Shown piece by piece: positions 1,840 through 26,316 of a DNA stretch of 64,000 nt. The notes under the pieces were generated by a model that searched no databases, was not told the origin of the DNA, and worked only from the letters and a program-made list of their open reading frames with translations. Origin of the DNA: an uncultured Alphaproteobacteria bacterium (lineage in GTDB: Bacteria; Pseudomonadota; Alphaproteobacteria; Methylaequorales; Methylaequoraceae); assembly GCA_902563505.1 (NCBI GenBank), contig CACEXK010000005.1:6636-70635 (forward strand), written 5' to 3'. Both the position numbers and the translations under genes were made by a program. Position 1 is the stretch's first letter. Each line of letters starts with the position of its first letter.

Positions 1840-1855
1840 TGGCATTATTTTTGCT
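1840..1855 (+). promoter_or_regulatory. sigma54 (-24/-12) promoter of the slt gene
   Basis: TGGCATTATTTTTGCT; GG and GC separated by exactly 10 nt; 11 nt lie between the motif and the ATG. Confidence 0.8.
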
Positions 1856-1866
1856 CATAACTATTT

Positions 1867-2490
1867 ATGAGATTTCAAAAAATAATATTATTTTTTATTT
1901 TTTTAATCATTTTTGATTATTCCCACTCATACCAATTAACCAACTGTAGTAGTTTAACAGAAAAATATGGTAGGCAATTTAATTTACCTAACAAACTTCT
2001 AACCTCTATCTCATTGGTAGAGTCTGGAAAAAAAGTTGGAGATAAATTTGTCTCATGGCCATGGACTCTTAATGTTGGTGGCAATTCAAAGTTTTTTAAT
2101 AATAAAGAGGAGACATTAGTTTTTTTAAGAAAAAATTATTCAAAAAATAAAAATATAGATGTAGGTTGTATGCAAATAAGTCTAAAATATCACGCCAAAG
2201 AATTTGACAATCTTGAAGATATTTTAGATCCTGAGAATAATGTCGAATACGGTGCAAAATTTTTAAAATCTCTTTATAATAGGCATAAATCATGGAATGA
2301 AGCAATATCAAGATACCATTCATCAATTCCAAAGAATAAAATAAAATATCTCAAAAAAGTCAGGGTTTTTTGGTCTGACTTGAGACAAAGAAAAAAATAT
2401 GTCGATGTAAAAATTATTAGTGAAAAACAAAAAAAAATTGACTTTTTTCGAGAAGAATTTAGCAGGAAAAAATCATCAAATGAAATATGA
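1867..2490 (+). CDS. Lytic transglycosylase (SLT domain), probably flagellum-associated
   Basis: Signal peptide, catalytic SLVESG, PWTLN, IDVGCMQISLKYH, AISRYHS motifs; preceded by a sigma54 promoter. Confidence 0.85.
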   Translation: MRFQKIILFFIFLIIFDYSHSYQLTNCSSLTEKYGRQFNLPNKLLTSISLVESGKKVGDKFVSWPWTLNVGGNSKFFNNKEETLVFLRKNYSKNKNIDVGCMQISLKYHAKEFDNLEDILDPENNVEYGAKFLKSLYNRHKSWNEAISRYHSSIPKNKIKYLKKVRVFWSDLRQRKKYVDVKIISEKQKKIDFFREEFSRKKSSNEI

Positions 2491-2492
2491 AG

Positions 2493-2508
2493 TGGCAAGA
2501 AATTTGCA
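2493..2508 (+). promoter_or_regulatory. sigma54 (-24/-12) promoter of a small ORF
   Basis: TGGCAAGAAATTTGCA, correct 10-nt GG-GC spacing. Confidence 0.8.
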
Positions 2509-2536
2509 ACAATATTAACATAACTAAGGAGTTAAA

Positions 2537-2710
2537 ATGAATTTAAATAAAGAAATTACTAATGAAGATTCTAATAATGTTTCTGGTCACTACACTTACA
2601 TAGAAATTTCTCATTACGATGACGATAAATTACTTAAAACTGAAACATATCCTTTAAGTCATTTTTTAGAAGGGTTTGAAAAAGAATTCAAGAGAGTAAG
2701 ATACAATTAG
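2537..2710 (+). CDS. 57-aa hypothetical microprotein (not in the ORF track)
   Basis: MNLNKEITNEDSNNVSGHYTYIEISHYDDDKLLKTETYPLSHFLEGFEKEFKRVRYN*; AAGGAG Shine-Dalgarno at 2526-2531; sigma54 promoter upstream. Confidence 0.7.
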   Translation: MNLNKEITNEDSNNVSGHYTYIEISHYDDDKLLKTETYPLSHFLEGFEKEFKRVRYN

Positions 2711-2807
2711 AGAATTTGAGAACTCTTCAAACACTCAAAAGTCGATAATTCATTTTAAATTGTTACTGGTAAATCGCTATTTAAGTTTTGCAAATAATTA
2801 AATATTC

Positions 2808-4262
2808 TTAAACATTCAAACTCTGAATTTTCATCATCCTTCTTCTTATTGAGGAAGAGGGGATGTTAAGTAACTCTCTATATTTTGCTACTGTTCTTCT
2901 AGCTAAATTTATTCCCTCTGACTGGAGTTTAGTTACAAGAATTTCATCACTAAAGGGACAATTTATTGGTTCATTAGTGATTAATCTTTTCAGAGATTCT
3001 CTTACTGAGGCTGCTGAATGACTCTCTCCTTTAATAGTTCCACTAATTGATGCGCTGAAGAATAACTTCATTTCAAAAATCCCCCTAGGAGTCAGCATTA
3101 ATTTGTCAGTAGTAACCCGACTGACAGTACTCTCGTGCATGTCTATTTTTTTTGCAACATCTTTCAGGATCATTGGTTTAAGATATTTTTTTCCTTTTTC
3201 AAAAAATAGTTTTTGTTGATTTACAATTTCTGCACTGATTTTGAGTGTGGTTAAATTTCTTTGTTGTATTGCTTTCATCAACCATTTGGCTGAATTAAGG
3301 TTTTCTGTAATAAATTTTTTATCAGAATCAGAACAATTTAATTTCTCAATTTCTTTAACATATTCTTCATTTACAGTAACTTTTGGTAATGTGCTATCGT
3401 TTAATTCAACTTCCCAATTACCATTGTTTTTTGAAACTATAATGTCTGGGTTAAAGATATTGGTATTTTCATCAGAGTACTTGGTACCAGGTTTTGGGTT
3501 AAGTAATCTTATCAATCTAATATTTTCGCGAAGTTGATCCTCTTTTAAATTAGTTTTTTTCTGAAGTTCTTTAAGATTTCCGTTTCCAAGAAGCTCTAAA
3601 TTTTCTATGATTAATTTTCGCTCATCTGTTAATTTTTCTTCATTCAATAATTGAATCATGAGGCATTCCTTTAAATTTCTAGCAAAAACTCCATTTGGAT
3701 CAAATTTTTGCATTCTCAAAAGAACTTCTTCAATTTTAGTTTTTTCATAACCACTGAATGAAGAGATTTCATCTAAATCGTTGGTGATCCATCCATTAGG
3801 GTCAATATAATCAATAAGTATTTCTGCAATATTTTTTTCTTTTGTATCAGAGAATTCTAAATCAGCTTGACTTCTTAGGATAGATTTAAGGGATAACTTT
3901 TCACTCAGTGTTTGTTCGACTACAGACCCCGGGTCAATTGAATCATTATTTGAAGACTTGTTGTATGTATTATAAGTTGGATCTAAATCCCATCTATTTT
4001 CATAATCATCATTTTTTGGTTCATCTTTAAGAGATTCACCTGTTTCAAACGAATCATTAAGATCATTAGTATTTTCATCAAACTCCTCAGAATTTTCCTC
4101 ACTACTCTGATTTTCAAGAAAGGGATTTTCCTCAAGTTCTTTATTTACAAGATCAGTTAATTCTAAATTATTGAGTTGGAGAAGTTTTATCGCTTGCTGA
4201 AGTTGTGGGGTCATCACAAGTGACTGGCTTTGCTTTAATTTTAAATTCTGAGTAATTTGCAT
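2808..4262 (-). CDS. rpoN: RNA polymerase sigma-54 factor
   Basis: N-terminal QSQSLVMTPQLQQAIKLLQL, MHESTVSRV HTH, RpoN box ARRTVAKYRE. Confidence 0.98.
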   Translation of the reverse strand: MQITQNLKLKQSQSLVMTPQLQQAIKLLQLNNLELTDLVNKELEENPFLENQSSEENSEEFDENTNDLNDSFETGESLKDEPKNDDYENRWDLDPTYNTYNKSSNNDSIDPGSVVEQTLSEKLSLKSILRSQADLEFSDTKEKNIAEILIDYIDPNGWITNDLDEISSFSGYEKTKIEEVLLRMQKFDPNGVFARNLKECLMIQLLNEEKLTDERKLIIENLELLGNGNLKELQKKTNLKEDQLRENIRLIRLLNPKPGTKYSDENTNIFNPDIIVSKNNGNWEVELNDSTLPKVTVNEEYVKEIEKLNCSDSDKKFITENLNSAKWLMKAIQQRNLTTLKISAEIVNQQKLFFEKGKKYLKPMILKDVAKKIDMHESTVSRVTTDKLMLTPRGIFEMKLFFSASISGTIKGESHSAASVRESLKRLITNEPINCPFSDEILVTKLQSEGINLARRTVAKYRELLNIPSSSIRRRMMKIQSLNV

Positions 4263-4443: not shown

Positions 4444-4986
4444 ATGTTAAAAATAATTCCATTGATAATTATTCCTTTATTTTTTTTTATTATTTTTCTT
4501 GGTGTTGAAAACCTGACACAAATTTCTGATGCAAAAAAAGAAAATATAAGAAGTGAATTAGAGAAATTAGATCAAAAAGATGATTTTTTAGAAAAAACCG
4601 CTGAAAATATCCAAGTAACCAATAAAGTAAGTCCAGATGAGAATAAAGATGAAGGAATAATCGTCAAGGAAACTAAAAATAACAAAGACTTAAAAAAAGA
4701 TCAAGAGGCTAAAAAGTTAAAAAATCCTCCTAAGGCAATTAAAAAACCTATAAAAATTAAGATGCAATTTGGGGCATTCAAAAAAAAAGATTATGCAAAT
4801 TCTTCAAAACAATCGATCGAAAAAAAAATAAAACAAAAATTCCCTGATTTTTCAATTATTGTAAATTTTGATAATAAAAAAAATCTTTACAAATTAATTC
4901 ATTTTTCTGAGGATTTAAGCATTGCTAAAGAAGTGTGTGAATTTAGTAAAAAGAAAAAAATAGGTTGTCTAATAGTCAAAAAATGA
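4444..4986 (+). CDS. Membrane-anchored SPOR-domain-like protein
   Basis: N-terminal TM helix, charged linker, C-terminal MQFGAF...LYKL...AKEVC...GCLIVK pattern. Confidence 0.6.
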   Translation: MLKIIPLIIIPLFFFIIFLGVENLTQISDAKKENIRSELEKLDQKDDFLEKTAENIQVTNKVSPDENKDEGIIVKETKNNKDLKKDQEAKKLKNPPKAIKKPIKIKMQFGAFKKKDYANSSKQSIEKKIKQKFPDFSIIVNFDNKKNLYKLIHFSEDLSIAKEVCEFSKKKKIGCLIVKK

Positions 4987-5183
4987 AAAATTGCAGAATA
5001 TGTATTATAATTAGATTTTTTTTGGCTAGTGTTTTGTTATTAATAATAATTGGTTTGTCAATGACAGATAATTTACATTATTTATCTTATGTAACATCCT
5101 GGAATGCTGCAATTTTAGTTTTGGTTCTTGGTGTTATAATTTTTCTGGTGAGATTTTTCGAATACTTAAAGACAAAAGATTAA
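4983..5183 (+). CDS. Small two-helix membrane protein
   Basis: ATG at 4983 overlaps the upstream TGA (ATGA); two hydrophobic stretches; CxxC near the N-terminus. Confidence 0.6.
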   Translation: MKNCRICIIIRFFLASVLLLIIIGLSMTDNLHYLSYVTSWNAAILVLVLGVIIFLVRFFEYLKTKD

Positions 5184-6558: not shown

Positions 6559-7737
6559 ATGGCTGAAGAAAAAAAAGAAAAAAAAGAAGAGGCAGTTGCT
6601 GCCGAAGAAGAAGAACACGAGTGTGAGGAGTGTCCTCCAAAGGGAGCGCCTGCATGGATGGCAACATTTGCTGATATGGCCACCCTTTTAATGGCTTTCT
6701 TCGTTTTGATTCTTTCTTTTGCTGAATTTAATGTCCCAAAATTTAAACAAATTAGTGGTAGTATGAAAAATGCCTTTGGTATTCAAAGAGTTATACCAAC
6801 AGTTGAACAACCCAAAGGCACAACAATGCTAACACTGAATTTTAGTCCCAATCCAACTCCATCTGTAACAGATAATAATCAACAGCAAACAACTGAAACG
6901 GATCAAAAAGAAGTAGAACTCAAAACAAAAGATAATGATGCTACTAAGGACGACGGGGAAAATGAGGATGCTAAAGAATTAGCTCAAAACATTAAAGATG
7001 CTGTTTCACAAGGTGATTCAGATGTACAAGTTGAAACTGTTGGAGATAAAGTTGTTGTAAACTTTGACCCTCAAGAAACAGATGAAAAAGAAATGCAGGA
7101 GGCAGTCCAAGCCATTGAATCAATTAAAGCAGCCTCAGGAAAATCAGATACGGAAGTTCTGTTTGGGGGTGTAGAAAAACAATTAGCGCAATTATCAACC
7201 GCATCCAACAAGCAAGGTAAAGGCGAAGCTGATTCTAATGAAGGTAATGATATTGGGTCATCTCCAGATACCTCAAAGGATGAAGAAAGAAAAGCAAAAA
7301 TAGCCGAGGACAAGTTTAAAGTAGCTTTAAAAGAAGAAATGGGTGAAGGATTAATTGATATTGAGAGAAACGAAGATAAAGTAATAATTACTGTTGGCTC
7401 AGGAGGAGCATTTAAATCAGGTTCAGCCGATTTGACTACAAAGGCAAAAAAGATTATGGCAAAAATTGCAGAGGTTAATGAAAAAGGTAGAAGTGAAATT
7501 TTAGTATCTGGTCATACTGATAATAAACCATTAACATTTGGTTCGATTTATAGAGATAATTGGGATCTTGCTGCTGCAAGGTCGTCATCAGTGGTACAGG
7601 AACTGTCCGGAACAGGAAAATTAAAACCAGATAGAATGAAAGCAATTAGCTATGGAGAAACTCAACCAGTTGCAGACAATAAATCTTCTGAAGGAAGAGA
7701 AAAAAATAGAAGAATTGAAATTGAAATTAATTATTAA
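6559..7737 (+). CDS. motB: Flagellar stator B subunit, PomB-like, with OmpA-like PG-binding domain
   Basis: ECPPKGAPAWMATFADMATLLMAFFVLILSF TM with the essential Asp; GHTDN, NWDLAAARS, NRRIEI. Confidence 0.96.
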   Translation: MAEEKKEKKEEAVAAEEEEHECEECPPKGAPAWMATFADMATLLMAFFVLILSFAEFNVPKFKQISGSMKNAFGIQRVIPTVEQPKGTTMLTLNFSPNPTPSVTDNNQQQTTETDQKEVELKTKDNDATKDDGENEDAKELAQNIKDAVSQGDSDVQVETVGDKVVVNFDPQETDEKEMQEAVQAIESIKAASGKSDTEVLFGGVEKQLAQLSTASNKQGKGEADSNEGNDIGSSPDTSKDEERKAKIAEDKFKVALKEEMGEGLIDIERNEDKVIITVGSGGAFKSGSADLTTKAKKIMAKIAEVNEKGRSEILVSGHTDNKPLTFGSIYRDNWDLAAARSSSVVQELSGTGKLKPDRMKAISYGETQPVADNKSSEGREKNRRIEIEINY

Positions 7738-23908: not shown

Positions 23909-25063
23909 TTAAATCACTGCTTGCTTTACTTCCTCATTCTCACTCAAATTTGAATAAAAATCATTCTTAGAATTAATGTCGATCATTATATCTTTTTCAT
24001 CTATAATTTCTCCATCACATAAAACAATTGCTCTCTGTAAAACATTCTCAAGTTCTCTAACATTTCCTGGCCAATTATAGCCTTTCAATAATTCTCTGGC
24101 TTTGTTTGTTATAAATGGCAATTTAGTTATACCTGAATGTCTTTTGAGTAAAGCCACACTTATTGGAATAATATCATTAGGTCTTTCTGACAGATTACAG
24201 GTTTCTATTGGAAATACATTTAATCTGTAATAGAGATCTTCTCTAAATTTCTTATCTTTAACTTCTTCAATCATATTACGATTAGTTGTAGCAATAACCC
24301 TTACATCAACATCAATATCTCTTTGTCCTCCAATTGGTGTAACCTTCTTTTCTTGGAGAACCCTCAATAACTTTGCTTGAAGTGAAAGTGGCATTTCAGA
24401 AATTTCATCAAGAAGAAGAGTGCCTGTGTCTGCTGCCCTGAAGATACCCTTGTTTGCTGAAGAAGCACCTGTAAAAGCCCCTTTTTCGTGACCAAAAAGC
24501 ATCGCCTCTAGCATATTTTCTGGAATTGCTGCACAGTTGATAGCAACAAAGGGTTTTTCTGACCTTCCAGAATTCTGATGAATGAAATTTGAAATAACTT
24601 CTTTTCCTGTCCCGGTTGGTCCATAGATAAAAACCGTAACATCTGTTTGAGCTACTTTTTTTGCCATTTTTACCAAAGAATGTGTTTTTGTATCTGAAAA
24701 ACTGAAGTTTTCAGTAGTTAAGATCTGAAAAATTATTTCTTTAACTACTTCATCAATCCCATTAAACATGATTTCTAGGTATGCTCCACCTAGATCTTCA
24801 TTTATCGAAAATTTATTTTCTTTTGATTCATTAAGAACAATTATACTTGTAGAACCAATATTTCTAGAGACTTTAAGTAACTCTGACTTTCCTCCAATTT
24901 CATTATTGAATTTATTAGAGCAAATAAGAGTTGATTTATTTTTTTCTAAACTTTTAGTATCATTAGAATTAATTACGGAATTTTTTATATTTTTGTCATT
25001 TAAAAAGTCTGACAACTTTTCAAATTGTTCAAAACTATCTTTTAAAATTAATATTTCTTTCAT
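23909..25063 (-). CDS. fleT: FleT-like sigma54 activator (degenerate receiver-like N-terminus, AAA+, no HTH)
   Basis: GPTGTGKE, GAFTGA, LLLDEISEM, WPGNVRELEN; ends shortly after the AAA+ domain with no Fis-type HTH; first gene of the fliE operon. Confidence 0.75.
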   Translation of the reverse strand: MKEILILKDSFEQFEKLSDFLNDKNIKNSVINSNDTKSLEKNKSTLICSNKFNNEIGGKSELLKVSRNIGSTSIIVLNESKENKFSINEDLGGAYLEIMFNGIDEVVKEIIFQILTTENFSFSDTKTHSLVKMAKKVAQTDVTVFIYGPTGTGKEVISNFIHQNSGRSEKPFVAINCAAIPENMLEAMLFGHEKGAFTGASSANKGIFRAADTGTLLLDEISEMPLSLQAKLLRVLQEKKVTPIGGQRDIDVDVRVIATTNRNMIEEVKDKKFREDLYYRLNVFPIETCNLSERPNDIIPISVALLKRHSGITKLPFITNKARELLKGYNWPGNVRELENVLQRAIVLCDGEIIDEKDIMIDINSKNDFYSNLSENEEVKQAVI

Positions 25064-25111: not shown

Positions 25112-25205
25112 AATTGTTTTATTTTTTTTATTTTTTTTTAAAAATCATTAAAATCAATTACTTACGAAAGACATTTCAAATTTTTATTTTTTTAAATTTC
25201 CTTAT

Positions 25206-25221
25206 TGTCATTTTTCTGACA
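25206..25221. promoter_or_regulatory. Palindromic FleQ-box-like operator between fleT and fleQ
   Basis: TGTCATTTTTCTGACA (TGTCA-N6-TGACA). Confidence 0.65.
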
Positions 25222-25242
25222 TTATTTTTATTGTATTTATGT

Positions 25243-26316
25243 ATGACTGAGATAATTAAAGGAAGTTGCGATGCAACTAAGCAGTTAAGAAAACTAGTAG
25301 AGATGGTTTCCGTCTCTGGGTCAACTGTTTTACTAAGAGGTGAAACCGGTTGTGGAAAAGATGTTGTTGCTCGAGCTATTCATGATCAATCAAAAAGAAA
25401 AGGGGATTTAATTAATGTTAATTGTGCTGCAATACCATCAGAACTATTAGAATCTGAATTGTTTGGTCACGAAAAGGGAGCTTTTACAGGAGCCGACTCA
25501 AAAAGAGAAGGAAGATTTGAAGCCTCAAATAATGGTACTCTCTTTTTAGATGAAATTGGCGATATGCCTCTTTCTCTTCAAGCAAAATTATTGAGGGCTA
25601 TAGAAACAAGAAAAATCCAGAGGGTTGGTGGAAAAGGTGAAATAAATTTAGATCTAAGATTGATTTGTGCAACTCATCAGAATATAGAAAAAAAGATTGA
25701 AGAGGGATTATTTAGAGCTGACCTTTTTTATAGAATTAATGTTTTTCCAATTGAGATCCCTACACTGTCTGAGAGAAAAGATGATATCCCAGAATTAATT
25801 GAACATATTTTAAGTGAAATTGAAACAAGTGGCTCTAAAATTCCATTATTTGAAGATTCAGCAATTTCAGCATTAAAAGAATATATATGGCCGGGAAATG
25901 TAAGAGAACTTAGAAATGTAATTGAAAGGTCAACAATAATTTTTTCAAATAAAAAAATAAATGCAAAAAATATAAGAGAAAATTTACTTAAAATTAATCT
26001 TCCTGATTTTAAAGAAGAAAAGAAAATTATCTGGGATATGACATCAGAACTTGCAGATATAAATGAAGAAAAAGAAAATGATGATTCAAATGAAATATCA
26101 ATGCCTCATCCCAATCACTATAAAAAATGGTTTGAGTATCTTGACCAAATTGATTTGAGAAGACACTTGGGGGAGGTTGAATATATTCTTATTGAAGGTG
26201 CACTGAGAAAGTCAAGTGGATCAGTTACAGAAGCATCTAAAAGTCTAAAAATAAATAGAACTACTCTGATTGAAAAAATGAAAAAATACTCAATACCAAA
26301 AGTAGGGAATGACTAA
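25243..26316 (+). CDS. fleQ: Flagellar master regulator FleQ-like sigma54 activator without an N-terminal regulatory domain
   Basis: Likely start MTEIIKGSC at 25243; GETGCGKD, GAFTGA, WPGNVRELRN; C-terminal IDLRRHLGEVE...INRTTLIEKMKKY HTH typical of FleQ. Confidence 0.85.
   Translation: MTEIIKGSCDATKQLRKLVEMVSVSGSTVLLRGETGCGKDVVARAIHDQSKRKGDLINVNCAAIPSELLESELFGHEKGAFTGADSKREGRFEASNNGTLFLDEIGDMPLSLQAKLLRAIETRKIQRVGGKGEINLDLRLICATHQNIEKKIEEGLFRADLFYRINVFPIEIPTLSERKDDIPELIEHILSEIETSGSKIPLFEDSAISALKEYIWPGNVRELRNVIERSTIIFSNKKINAKNIRENLLKINLPDFKEEKKIIWDMTSELADINEEKENDDSNEISMPHPNHYKKWFEYLDQIDLRRHLGEVEYILIEGALRKSSGSVTEASKSLKINRTTLIEKMKKYSIPKVGND

Follow-up and report, generated by a model that had tools for sequence, protein, structure and literature searches.

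A sigma-54 promoter and a microprotein gene convergent on rpoN

We analyzed a 64,000-nt stretch of contig CACEXK010000005.1, from an uncultured alphaproteobacterium of the order Methylaequorales (the window; positions are those of the window unless another contig or locus is named), and focus here on a 57-codon open reading frame (ORF) that lies between a gene for a lytic transglycosylase with an SLT domain and the convergent gene for sigma-54, rpoN (Table 1). Immediately upstream of this ORF is a putative sigma-54 promoter, TGGCAAGAAATTTGCA, in which the GG and GC dinucleotides are 10 bp apart, a spacing that agrees with the sigma-54 consensus TGGCAC-N5-TTGCW, and which is separated from the ATG of the ORF by 28 nt. 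Three matches to the strict pattern TGGCA-N6-TTGCW lie in the window, compared to an expectation of 0.21. The transcription start given in Table 1 was predicted by placing the C of the GC dinucleotide (C2507) at -12; the sigma factor for the promoter is supplied by the rpoN gene itself.

The predicted leader carries a strong ribosome-binding site, AAGGAG, of a kind that is rare in this genome, since a Shine-Dalgarno sequence of 5-6 nt precedes just ~3.6% of its long ORFs (an approximate figure for a 30% G+C genome, scored at the first ATG). Thus, the first-pass annotation of this DNA, which had described a correctly spaced sigma-54 box, an AAGGAG and a 57-codon ORF, and had remarked on the scarcity of such clear Shine-Dalgarno sequences, was accurate on each of these points. 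It had also called the ORF unannotated, which holds for the ORF track on which it was based but not for the public collections: NCBI, JGI, ENA and Tara all call the gene, either without a name or as 'hypothetical protein'.

Between the microprotein gene and rpoN there is an A+T-rich spacer, in which we found no terminator-like hairpin and which folds no better than shuffled sequence on either strand (z-scores of 0.45 and 0.61). The coordinates and the fold tests therefore both agree with the earlier description of a 97-nt gap to the 3' end of rpoN without a clear terminator. An Rfam scan of the whole window gave no match.

Table 1. Features of the microprotein locus and of the regulatory genes encoded in the window
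Feature	Position	Strand	Remark
Sigma-54 (-24/-12) promoter box TGGCAAGAAATTTGCA	2493..2508	+	Starts 3 nt past the stop codon of the SLT gene
Predicted transcription start	2519 (within ~2 nt)	+	Leader of ~18 nt; inferred from the usual sigma-54 geometry
Shine-Dalgarno sequence AAGGAG	2526..2531	+	5 nt ahead of the ATG at 2537
57-aa microprotein gene (P0001)	2537..2710	+	ATG at 2537, TAG stop at 2708-2710, 57 codons
A+T-rich spacer, microprotein stop to rpoN stop	2711..2807	.	97 nt; length not conserved
rpoN (sigma-54), convergent	2808..4262	-	All three Sigma54 Pfam domains; sole rpoN of the genome
Lytic transglycosylase with Sec signal, SLT domain (PF01464)	1867..2490	+	Upstream neighbor in the host order only
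Second sigma-54 box TGGCATTATTTTTGCT	1840..1855	+	11 nt ahead of the start codon of the SLT gene
FleT-like enhancer-binding protein (AAA+ sigma-54 interaction domain, no helix-turn-helix)	23909..25063	-	Head of the fliE-J operon; presumed co-activator in trans
FleQ-like enhancer-binding protein (AAA+ and HTH_8)	25114..26316	+	Presumed activator in trans

Promoter and reading frame are conserved in the host order

The host order consists of one family, represented by 42 species genomes of 0.8-2.0 Mb, which we searched in six frames. The ORF was detected in 32 of the 42 genomes, as a single copy each time, and rpoN is present in exactly the same 32. In the ten genomes without the ORF, rpoN and the adjacent gene for an M23 peptidase are absent too, and in the three of these that we inspected (G020, G024 and G025) fliI is present but the contig stops short of the rpoN region; thus, the absence of the ORF from these ten genomes is uninformative. 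We note that these three contigs (G020:C2, G025:C19 and G024:C1) all end between fliI and the rpoN/M23 segment, which is missing from the assemblies, and this suggests that a nearby stretch, variable or repeated, resists assembly.

We compared 30 loci of the host order, that is, the window and 29 loci fetched from its relatives. All 29 relatives show the same order of genes: M23 peptidase, SLT, small ORF and convergent rpoN. The TGGCA and TGCA of the sigma-54 box are invariant in 30/30 loci, while all flanking positions vary; in most loci the box lies 22-31 nt upstream of the ATG (taking the ATG preceded by a Shine-Dalgarno sequence as the start), and in most it is followed by a GGAG-type ribosome site. 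The ORF is 55-61 codons long across these loci, and frame +1 alone is open in all 30, with the other five frames averaging 2.5-10.6 stops. Within the core of the protein (residues 21-57), the entropies at codon positions 1, 2 and 3 are 0.95, 0.65 and 1.27, respectively, so that position 2 is the least variable, which is the signature of constraint on the amino acid sequence; in contrast to this core, the first 20 codons are almost unconstrained (1.28, 1.25 and 1.40). Consistent with coding constraint, the ratio of nonsynonymous to synonymous substitution (dN/dS) is 0.1-0.5 for close pairs, distant pairs being saturated at the 30% G+C of this genome.

Judging from these patterns, 2537-2710 is a genuine protein-coding microprotein gene. 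We considered that both the ORF and its promoter might be accidental, since short ORFs and GG-N10-GC matches arise randomly and the loose pattern TGG-N8-TTGCW occurs 152 times in this genome. However, chance does not account for a box that is invariant in all 30 loci ahead of a single open frame in which codon position 2 varies least and dN/dS is 0.1-0.5, nor for the 159 cluster representatives of the family in public metagenomic gene sets, where they are nameless or labeled 'hypothetical protein'. This explanation is effectively refuted by the conservation, the dN/dS values and the coding signature, and we give it next to no weight. Four matching loci in a public genome collection come from metagenome-assembled or single-cell genomes labeled 'Alphaproteobacteria bacterium'.

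The core of the microprotein has the motif P-[VMI]-I-[KE]-I-[TS]-H-[FY]-[DE]-x-D-K-x-x-K-T-[ED]-x-[YF]-P-x-x-H-F-L-[DE], and its C-terminal end, K-x-[IV]-x-Y-[NS], is also conserved; TETYPLSHFLEGFEK is a peptide from the protein encoded in the window. The description of the product as acidic applies to this copy (net charge -4) but not to the family, which has a median net charge of +1 in the host order and ranges from -4 to +6.

In one relative (G027:C13:16332-17785, locus L025), rpoN matches in two pieces, with in-frame stops (one TGA and one TAA), and the microprotein ORF and its promoter are intact beside it; either the sequence or its assembly is in error there, or rpoN may be decaying.

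Sigma-54 promoters and their activators in the genome

Transcription from a sigma-54 promoter requires both the sigma factor and an enhancer-binding protein. We examined the sigma-54 regulon of the genome assembly (1.27 Mb, 87% complete, 30% G+C). The genome encodes one rpoN and two enhancer-binding proteins: two proteins, both encoded in the window, score highly against the sigma-54 interaction domain (237 and 228 bits), and two further generic AAA+ proteins are barely over the cut-off, at 27-31 bits. An NtrC-type activator was not found in the genome, which leaves the FleQ-like and FleT-like pair as its only enhancer-binding proteins.

There are 18 strict sigma-54 boxes in the genome. Intergenic strict boxes precede the genes for a 521-aa flagellin, FliS, FlgB, an FlgF-like rod protein, FlhA, FliK and the SLT protein, as well as the microprotein, and another lies inside the preceding ORF, 36 nt upstream of flgG. 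Most of the intergenic boxes are thus ahead of flagellar genes, the exceptions being those before the genes for a P-II protein, a methyltransferase and a 388-aa Cys-rich protein. Since the only activators are the flagellar FleQ/FleT-like pair, the microprotein gene is very probably a member of the flagellar regulon, and the simplest reading of its promoter is that FleQ/FleT activate it, given the absence of other activators. Taking the dedicated promoter and the coding evidence together, we consider it highly probable that the gene is real and codes for a protein, and that it belongs to the flagellar regulon under sigma-54 control, in agreement with the earlier suggestion of a new small protein of that regulon.

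The familiar small regulators and accessory proteins of such a regulon are encoded elsewhere in the genome: FliA, FlgM (C9:25594-25905), FlhF, FlhG/FleN (beside flhF and fliA), FliS, FliK and a single-domain FlgJ (C3:29934-30077). We had considered that the microprotein might be a 'missing' flagellar component, and their presence rules out that identity for FlgM, FliA, FlgJ, FlhF, FlhG/FleN, FliS and FliK. For the anti-activator or chaperone that the first-pass annotation had put forward as possible roles, too, the canonical proteins are in place, so that none of the known functions lacks a protein.

A positional counterpart in a second alphaproteobacterial lineage

We also compared 30 rpoN loci from other alphaproteobacterial families. 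Nearly all of them have the usual same-strand genes downstream of rpoN, in what we take to be the arrangement rpoN-hpf-ptsN. The exception was G161, a 2.0 Mb genome of ~50% G+C with two rpoN genes, one of which lies inside a flagellar island. Convergent on this flagellar rpoN we found TGGCACAAAAAATGCA, followed by 29 nt that include AAGGAGA and by a 65-aa ORF, and then by a GC-rich hairpin with runs of A and T on its flanks. The island is laid out like that of the window: fliOPQR-flhB, motB-motA, a gene for an Lcl_C protein, a small ORF for a CxxC membrane protein, and rpoN.

The same module, with a sigma-54 box, 25-34 nt (in all but one locus) containing GGAG, and an ORF of 58-75 aa, is present in 11 of the 12 genomes of this second family in which we inspected the 3' flank of the flagellar rpoN ortholog. 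In the four second-family loci that were read further downstream, the ORF is followed by a bidirectional GC-rich hairpin. Upstream of the microprotein gene in G161 there is no SLT or M23 gene; instead, there are genes for two single-domain cyclic-nucleotide (cNMP)-binding proteins and an ion channel. The two cNMP-binding proteins (120 and 123 aa) are encoded in tandem, and the channel is of the voltage-gated type (L084 10825-12551; L085 591-2305; L086 1148-2859). Since the upstream neighbors in the second family are these cNMP-binding proteins and the channel, the link to the SLT gene is not conserved, and the difference between the two lineages indicates that the module goes with the flagellar rpoN, or with the island edge, rather than with SLT. 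A functional tie to SLT and M23 is weakened accordingly, as neither adjoins the microprotein in the second lineage.

The second-family sequences fall into at least two types, '...V-F-F-D-E...L-P-D-D-F-I-G-P-P' and '...Q-V-T-Y-Y-N-D...', between which hhalign detected no similarity despite their occupying the same locus in one family; thus, the gene evolves very fast. With the g214-type microprotein, hhalign gave no significant match to either profile, even though its position clearly marks this microprotein as a counterpart. The alignment of the host-order profile with the first type gave E=0.0011 with a probability of 20% over 32 columns, in exactly the register of a predicted beta-hairpin (see below), which is suggestive but falls short of proof, and an AlphaFold2 model of the second-lineage type, made from a shallow alignment, has a disordered N-terminus, a hairpin (17-23/29-36) and a short helical turn. 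In both lineages the microprotein gene has the same place in the genome and the same type and spacing of promoter, and its product has a similar size and the same predicted topology; a common ancestry of the microproteins is likely. Homologous or not, what is conserved is the promoter and the capacity to code for a protein.

We also note that the N-terminal ~100 residues of MotB (window 6559-7737 and L084 5996-7147) are far more alike between the lineages, by eye and with long identical stretches, than is RpoN (~40% identity); the history of the flagellar island may differ from that of its host genomes.

An undescribed family with a predicted beta-hairpin

The family to which the microprotein belongs is undescribed: it is outside Pfam, NCBIfam and the PDB. 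Pfam and NCBIfam gave no match to the microprotein, and a Pfam search of 64 aligned members at E<=10 gave only scattered single matches, none of them recurrent. A profile search of PDB sequences gave a best E of 0.15 (a 21-residue stretch of staphylokinase), and Foldseek of the AlphaFold2 model against the PDB gave nothing below E=2.8. Thus, the impression that this was not a recognizable family held up in every search. Moreover, when 1.84 billion representative proteins were searched exhaustively with the profile, there were only 18 matches, all of the same family and some of them truncated or chimeric, and so revealed no wider relatives. Neither of the two flagellar reviews that we consulted describes the family (PMC7277832, PMC3930126).

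The AlphaFold2 model, built from an alignment of 64 sequences, has a mean predicted local distance difference test score (pLDDT) of 74.7. Residues 1-17 are predicted to be disordered and to be followed by a two-stranded, amphipathic beta-hairpin (21-28/31-39) with pLDDT >90, a short helix (41-44) and an extended tail. We found no signal peptide and no similarity to known flagellar structural proteins or chaperones, and the predicted hairpin is unlike the helical fold of flagellar chaperones. We compared the microprotein with FlbD/SwrD (PF06289), which is likewise a flagellar microprotein, of ~60-70 aa, and which presumably begins with a beta-hairpin followed by a helix; however, none of the 64 family members matches PF06289 at E<=10. 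The FlgJ rod-binding domain (PF10135) had no match in the microprotein either. Since the predicted structural element is too small to fold alone, the microprotein most likely docks on a partner or oligomerizes, and the model thus suggests that it quite probably acts as a protein by binding a partner.

Possible roles of the microprotein

Flagellar hierarchies typically include regulators that are expressed by the very tier they control, such as FlgM for sigma-28 and FleN for FleQ. With one rpoN and only the two flagellar enhancer-binding proteins in the genome, the promoter of the microprotein gene should be active only when the flagellar sigma-54 program is on, and the gene has an unusually strong ribosome-binding site. 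By analogy with those regulators, the product, with its disordered N-tail, hairpin and short helix, would dock on a partner or oligomerize and serve as a stoichiometric feedback or checkpoint factor on the sigma-54 tier, either on RpoN or on the FleQ/FleT complex. As a whole, we somewhat favor this explanation, a microprotein of the flagellar regulon that acts as a feedback factor of the sigma-54 tier; the specific proposal that its partner lies in that tier is tentative, and less likely than not. We lean toward feedback on this tier because rpoN is the sole constant neighbor of the gene, because a private promoter reports the activity of the tier, and because FlgM, FleN and FlgZ provide precedents.

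Each of these precedents differs from the microprotein in important ways. Like the microprotein, FlgM (anti-sigma-28, PF04316) is a small, partly disordered and fast-evolving flagellar regulator, made by the hierarchy on which it feeds back, but the microprotein has no match to PF04316, the genome has a genuine FlgM at another locus, bound FlgM is helical whereas a beta-hairpin is predicted here, and the target here would be the sigma-54 tier. FleN/FlhG of Pseudomonas is the product of a FleQ/RpoN-dependent gene and feeds back negatively on the sigma-54 activator (PMC3930126), but it is a MinD-type ATPase of ~280 aa without similarity to the microprotein, and a homolog is already present in the genome. 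FlgZ/HP0958, the RpoN chaperone of Helicobacter pylori, is not an activator but, in a flagellar sigma-54 system, binds RpoN and controls how much of it is present (PMC3372290, PMC3930126); it is, however, a ~250 aa protein with a coiled coil and a zinc ribbon with two CXXC motifs, and the microprotein has neither a cysteine motif nor any similarity to it.

The regulatory architecture matches that of the Fla1 system of Rhodobacter (Cereibacter) sphaeroides, with its RpoN2, FleQ, FleT and SltF (PMC7277832). Common to both are rpoN in the flagellar locus, a FleQ with a helix-turn-helix, a FleT without one that heads fliEFGHIJ, FliA and FlgM, a separate Sec-exported SLT protein and a single-domain FlgJ; they differ in that the long flagellin here carries a sigma-54 box, rather than being under sigma-28 control alone. 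The review of Fla1 mentions no counterpart of the microprotein (PMC7277832). Thus, the regulatory frame is the known Fla1-type hierarchy, and the microprotein is an uncharacterized extra component of it.

Several observations weigh against feedback on the sigma-54 tier. FlgM, FlhG/FleN and FliA are already encoded, which leaves no visible gap among the regulators; the gene could stand next to rpoN simply through inherited synteny, with no bearing on function; its dependence on FleQ/FleT is deduced from the lack of further activators, and the assembly is 87% complete; and homology across the lineages rests on position, promoter and topology and is not statistically established (hhalign, 20%). 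Moreover, one second-family genome (G258) has a flagellar rpoN but lacks the module, its channel gene abutting rpoN, so that the microprotein is dispensable in at least one case; G258 has lost the cNMP-binding pair as well as the microprotein.

A more specific version of feedback, in which the microprotein is an anti-sigma-54 or anti-FleQ/FleT factor, made under sigma-54 control, bound through its hairpin to RpoN or to the FleQ/FleT ring and possibly exported by way of its N-tail, is unlikely in our judgment. If true, it would be the sigma-54 counterpart of the FlgM/sigma-28 checkpoint, with removal through the flagellar type III apparatus. We know of no described anti-sigma factor for sigma-54, and a full-text literature search for one found none.

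About as likely as feedback on the sigma-54 tier, though still doubtful, is that the microprotein is an accessory of flagellar export or assembly: a type III export substrate or adaptor, or a factor that positions or tempers the SLT protein where the rod penetrates the wall. Like the N-termini of flagellar export substrates, its first 17-20 residues are disordered and hydrophilic and show little conservation, and a beta-hairpin, if exposed, would lend itself to beta-strand addition to a partner. In the host order the gene is directly downstream of the sigma-54-driven SLT gene, and in Rhodobacter sphaeroides it is still an open question how SltF activity is controlled (PMC7277832). However, the second family has the cNMP-binding proteins and channel in place of SLT, a single-domain FlgJ is encoded elsewhere, and export or assembly finds no support in a signal peptide or in similarity to known flagellar proteins. 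A role outside the flagellum, in which the gene is sigma-54-dependent but belongs with the cell-wall and shape genes upstream (three bactofilins, an LmdC-like M23 protein and SLT), is far less probable: the gene does stand at the boundary between the flagellar island and the bactofilin/M23 block, but we found no sigma-54 box ahead of the M23 gene of the window, the genome has no activators other than the flagellar ones, and the second-family microprotein lies beside a flagellar rpoN without an M23, SLT or bactofilin neighbor.

Finally, the transcript rather than the protein might matter, if read-through into the 3' end of rpoN acted by antisense pairing or transcriptional interference, with the ORF being secondary. 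As in the window, most relatives have no terminator between the ORF and rpoN, and in four of their loci the stop codons of the ORF and of rpoN overlap, by 4 nt, so that the 3' ends of both mRNAs must overlap there. Convergent 3' overlap is, however, common in compact genomes. The gap between the stop codons in relatives ranges from -4 to 112 nt without any conserved element, the spacer being conserved in neither length nor sequence, whereas the ORF is under clear constraint at the protein level and its strong Shine-Dalgarno sequence is kept. The locus also fails to resemble a cis-antisense or small RNA, as there is no Rfam match, the signature is one of coding, and the spacer folds like its shuffles. 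In the second family, a GC-rich bidirectional terminator separates the ORF from rpoN, and in the lineage with such good terminators, read-through into rpoN appears to be actively prevented. Antisense feedback on rpoN, which the first-pass annotation had raised as a possibility, is thus not supported as a conserved function, given the variable gap and the bidirectional terminator of the second lineage, and we regard this explanation as improbable, to much the same degree as a role outside the flagellum or marginally less so.

Returning to a new accessory factor of flagellar gene control or assembly, for which the microprotein is a good candidate, we note that sigma-54 flagellar hierarchies are well studied in only a few cultured bacteria, and that FlgM, FleN and FlgZ were all found genetically. 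In genomes so extremely streamlined that superfluous genes vanish fast, the microprotein gene is equipped with an invariant sigma-54 promoter of its own and with a strong ribosome-binding site, and its place beside the flagellar rpoN has been kept in two deeply separated marine lineages despite divergence beyond profile detection. Should the microprotein act on the sigma-54 tier, sigma-54 would have a control point of a new type; if it is an assembly factor, it would be an added part of the Fla1-type flagellum. In either case, position and promoter can trace fast-evolving microproteins where sequence searches fail.

Other sigma-54 boxes and neighboring genes

The box that precedes the SLT gene is present in 30/30 host-order loci, and in 24 of these the listed start is an ATG 10-12 nt downstream; in most of the remaining loci, an earlier in-frame TTG or GTG was taken first as the start. 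The SLT gene has no Shine-Dalgarno sequence, and with a predicted +1 at ~1866 its mRNA would be effectively leaderless, in contrast to that of the strong-Shine-Dalgarno microprotein gene beside it. The same 11-nt spacing from box to start is found before the FlgF-like rod gene, the P-II gene and the methyltransferase gene (C9:16556, C13:17279 and C13:7665, respectively), and it appears that sigma-54 transcripts without a leader occur regularly in this genome.

Two of the exceptional genes with strict boxes deserve comment. The box before the P-II (GlnB/K) gene (G000 C13:17279-17641) is directly adjacent to it, and may be due to chance, to the absence of an activator gene from the 87%-complete assembly, or to cross-control by the flagellar activators. 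The gene for the 388-aa Cys-rich protein (MLIELDYLKKFKCVGSDCSNTCCGG...; G000 C3:103275-104464) has its strict box 10 nt before the start; the protein has no Pfam match, and its N-terminus may resemble that of FliB-type flagellin lysine methylases.

A second conserved microprotein lies across rpoN (window 4965-5183, + strand). It is a membrane protein of 72-102 aa with the motif C-x-R-C-x-x-I-R-[FY]-F, it gives only weak, sub-threshold DsbB-like Pfam matches, and it has counterparts at L084 8575-8883 (- strand), L111 ~3171, L115 ~3238, L117 ~3239 and L120 ~1329. This CxxC membrane microprotein carries its own sigma-54 box in the second family; no strict box was seen before it in the window.

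Upstream of the SLT gene and its box, G000 C5:5190-8466 (to position 1831 of the window) contains three tandem ORFs that are bactofilin-like by eye, followed by genes for a 178-aa, C-terminally anchored protein and a 459-aa protein in which a transmembrane segment and a long linker are joined to a C-terminal M23 peptidase domain. The bactofilin-like ORFs and the M23 protein together resemble the bactofilin-LmdC cell-shape module, and this block forms the non-flagellar side of the island boundary.

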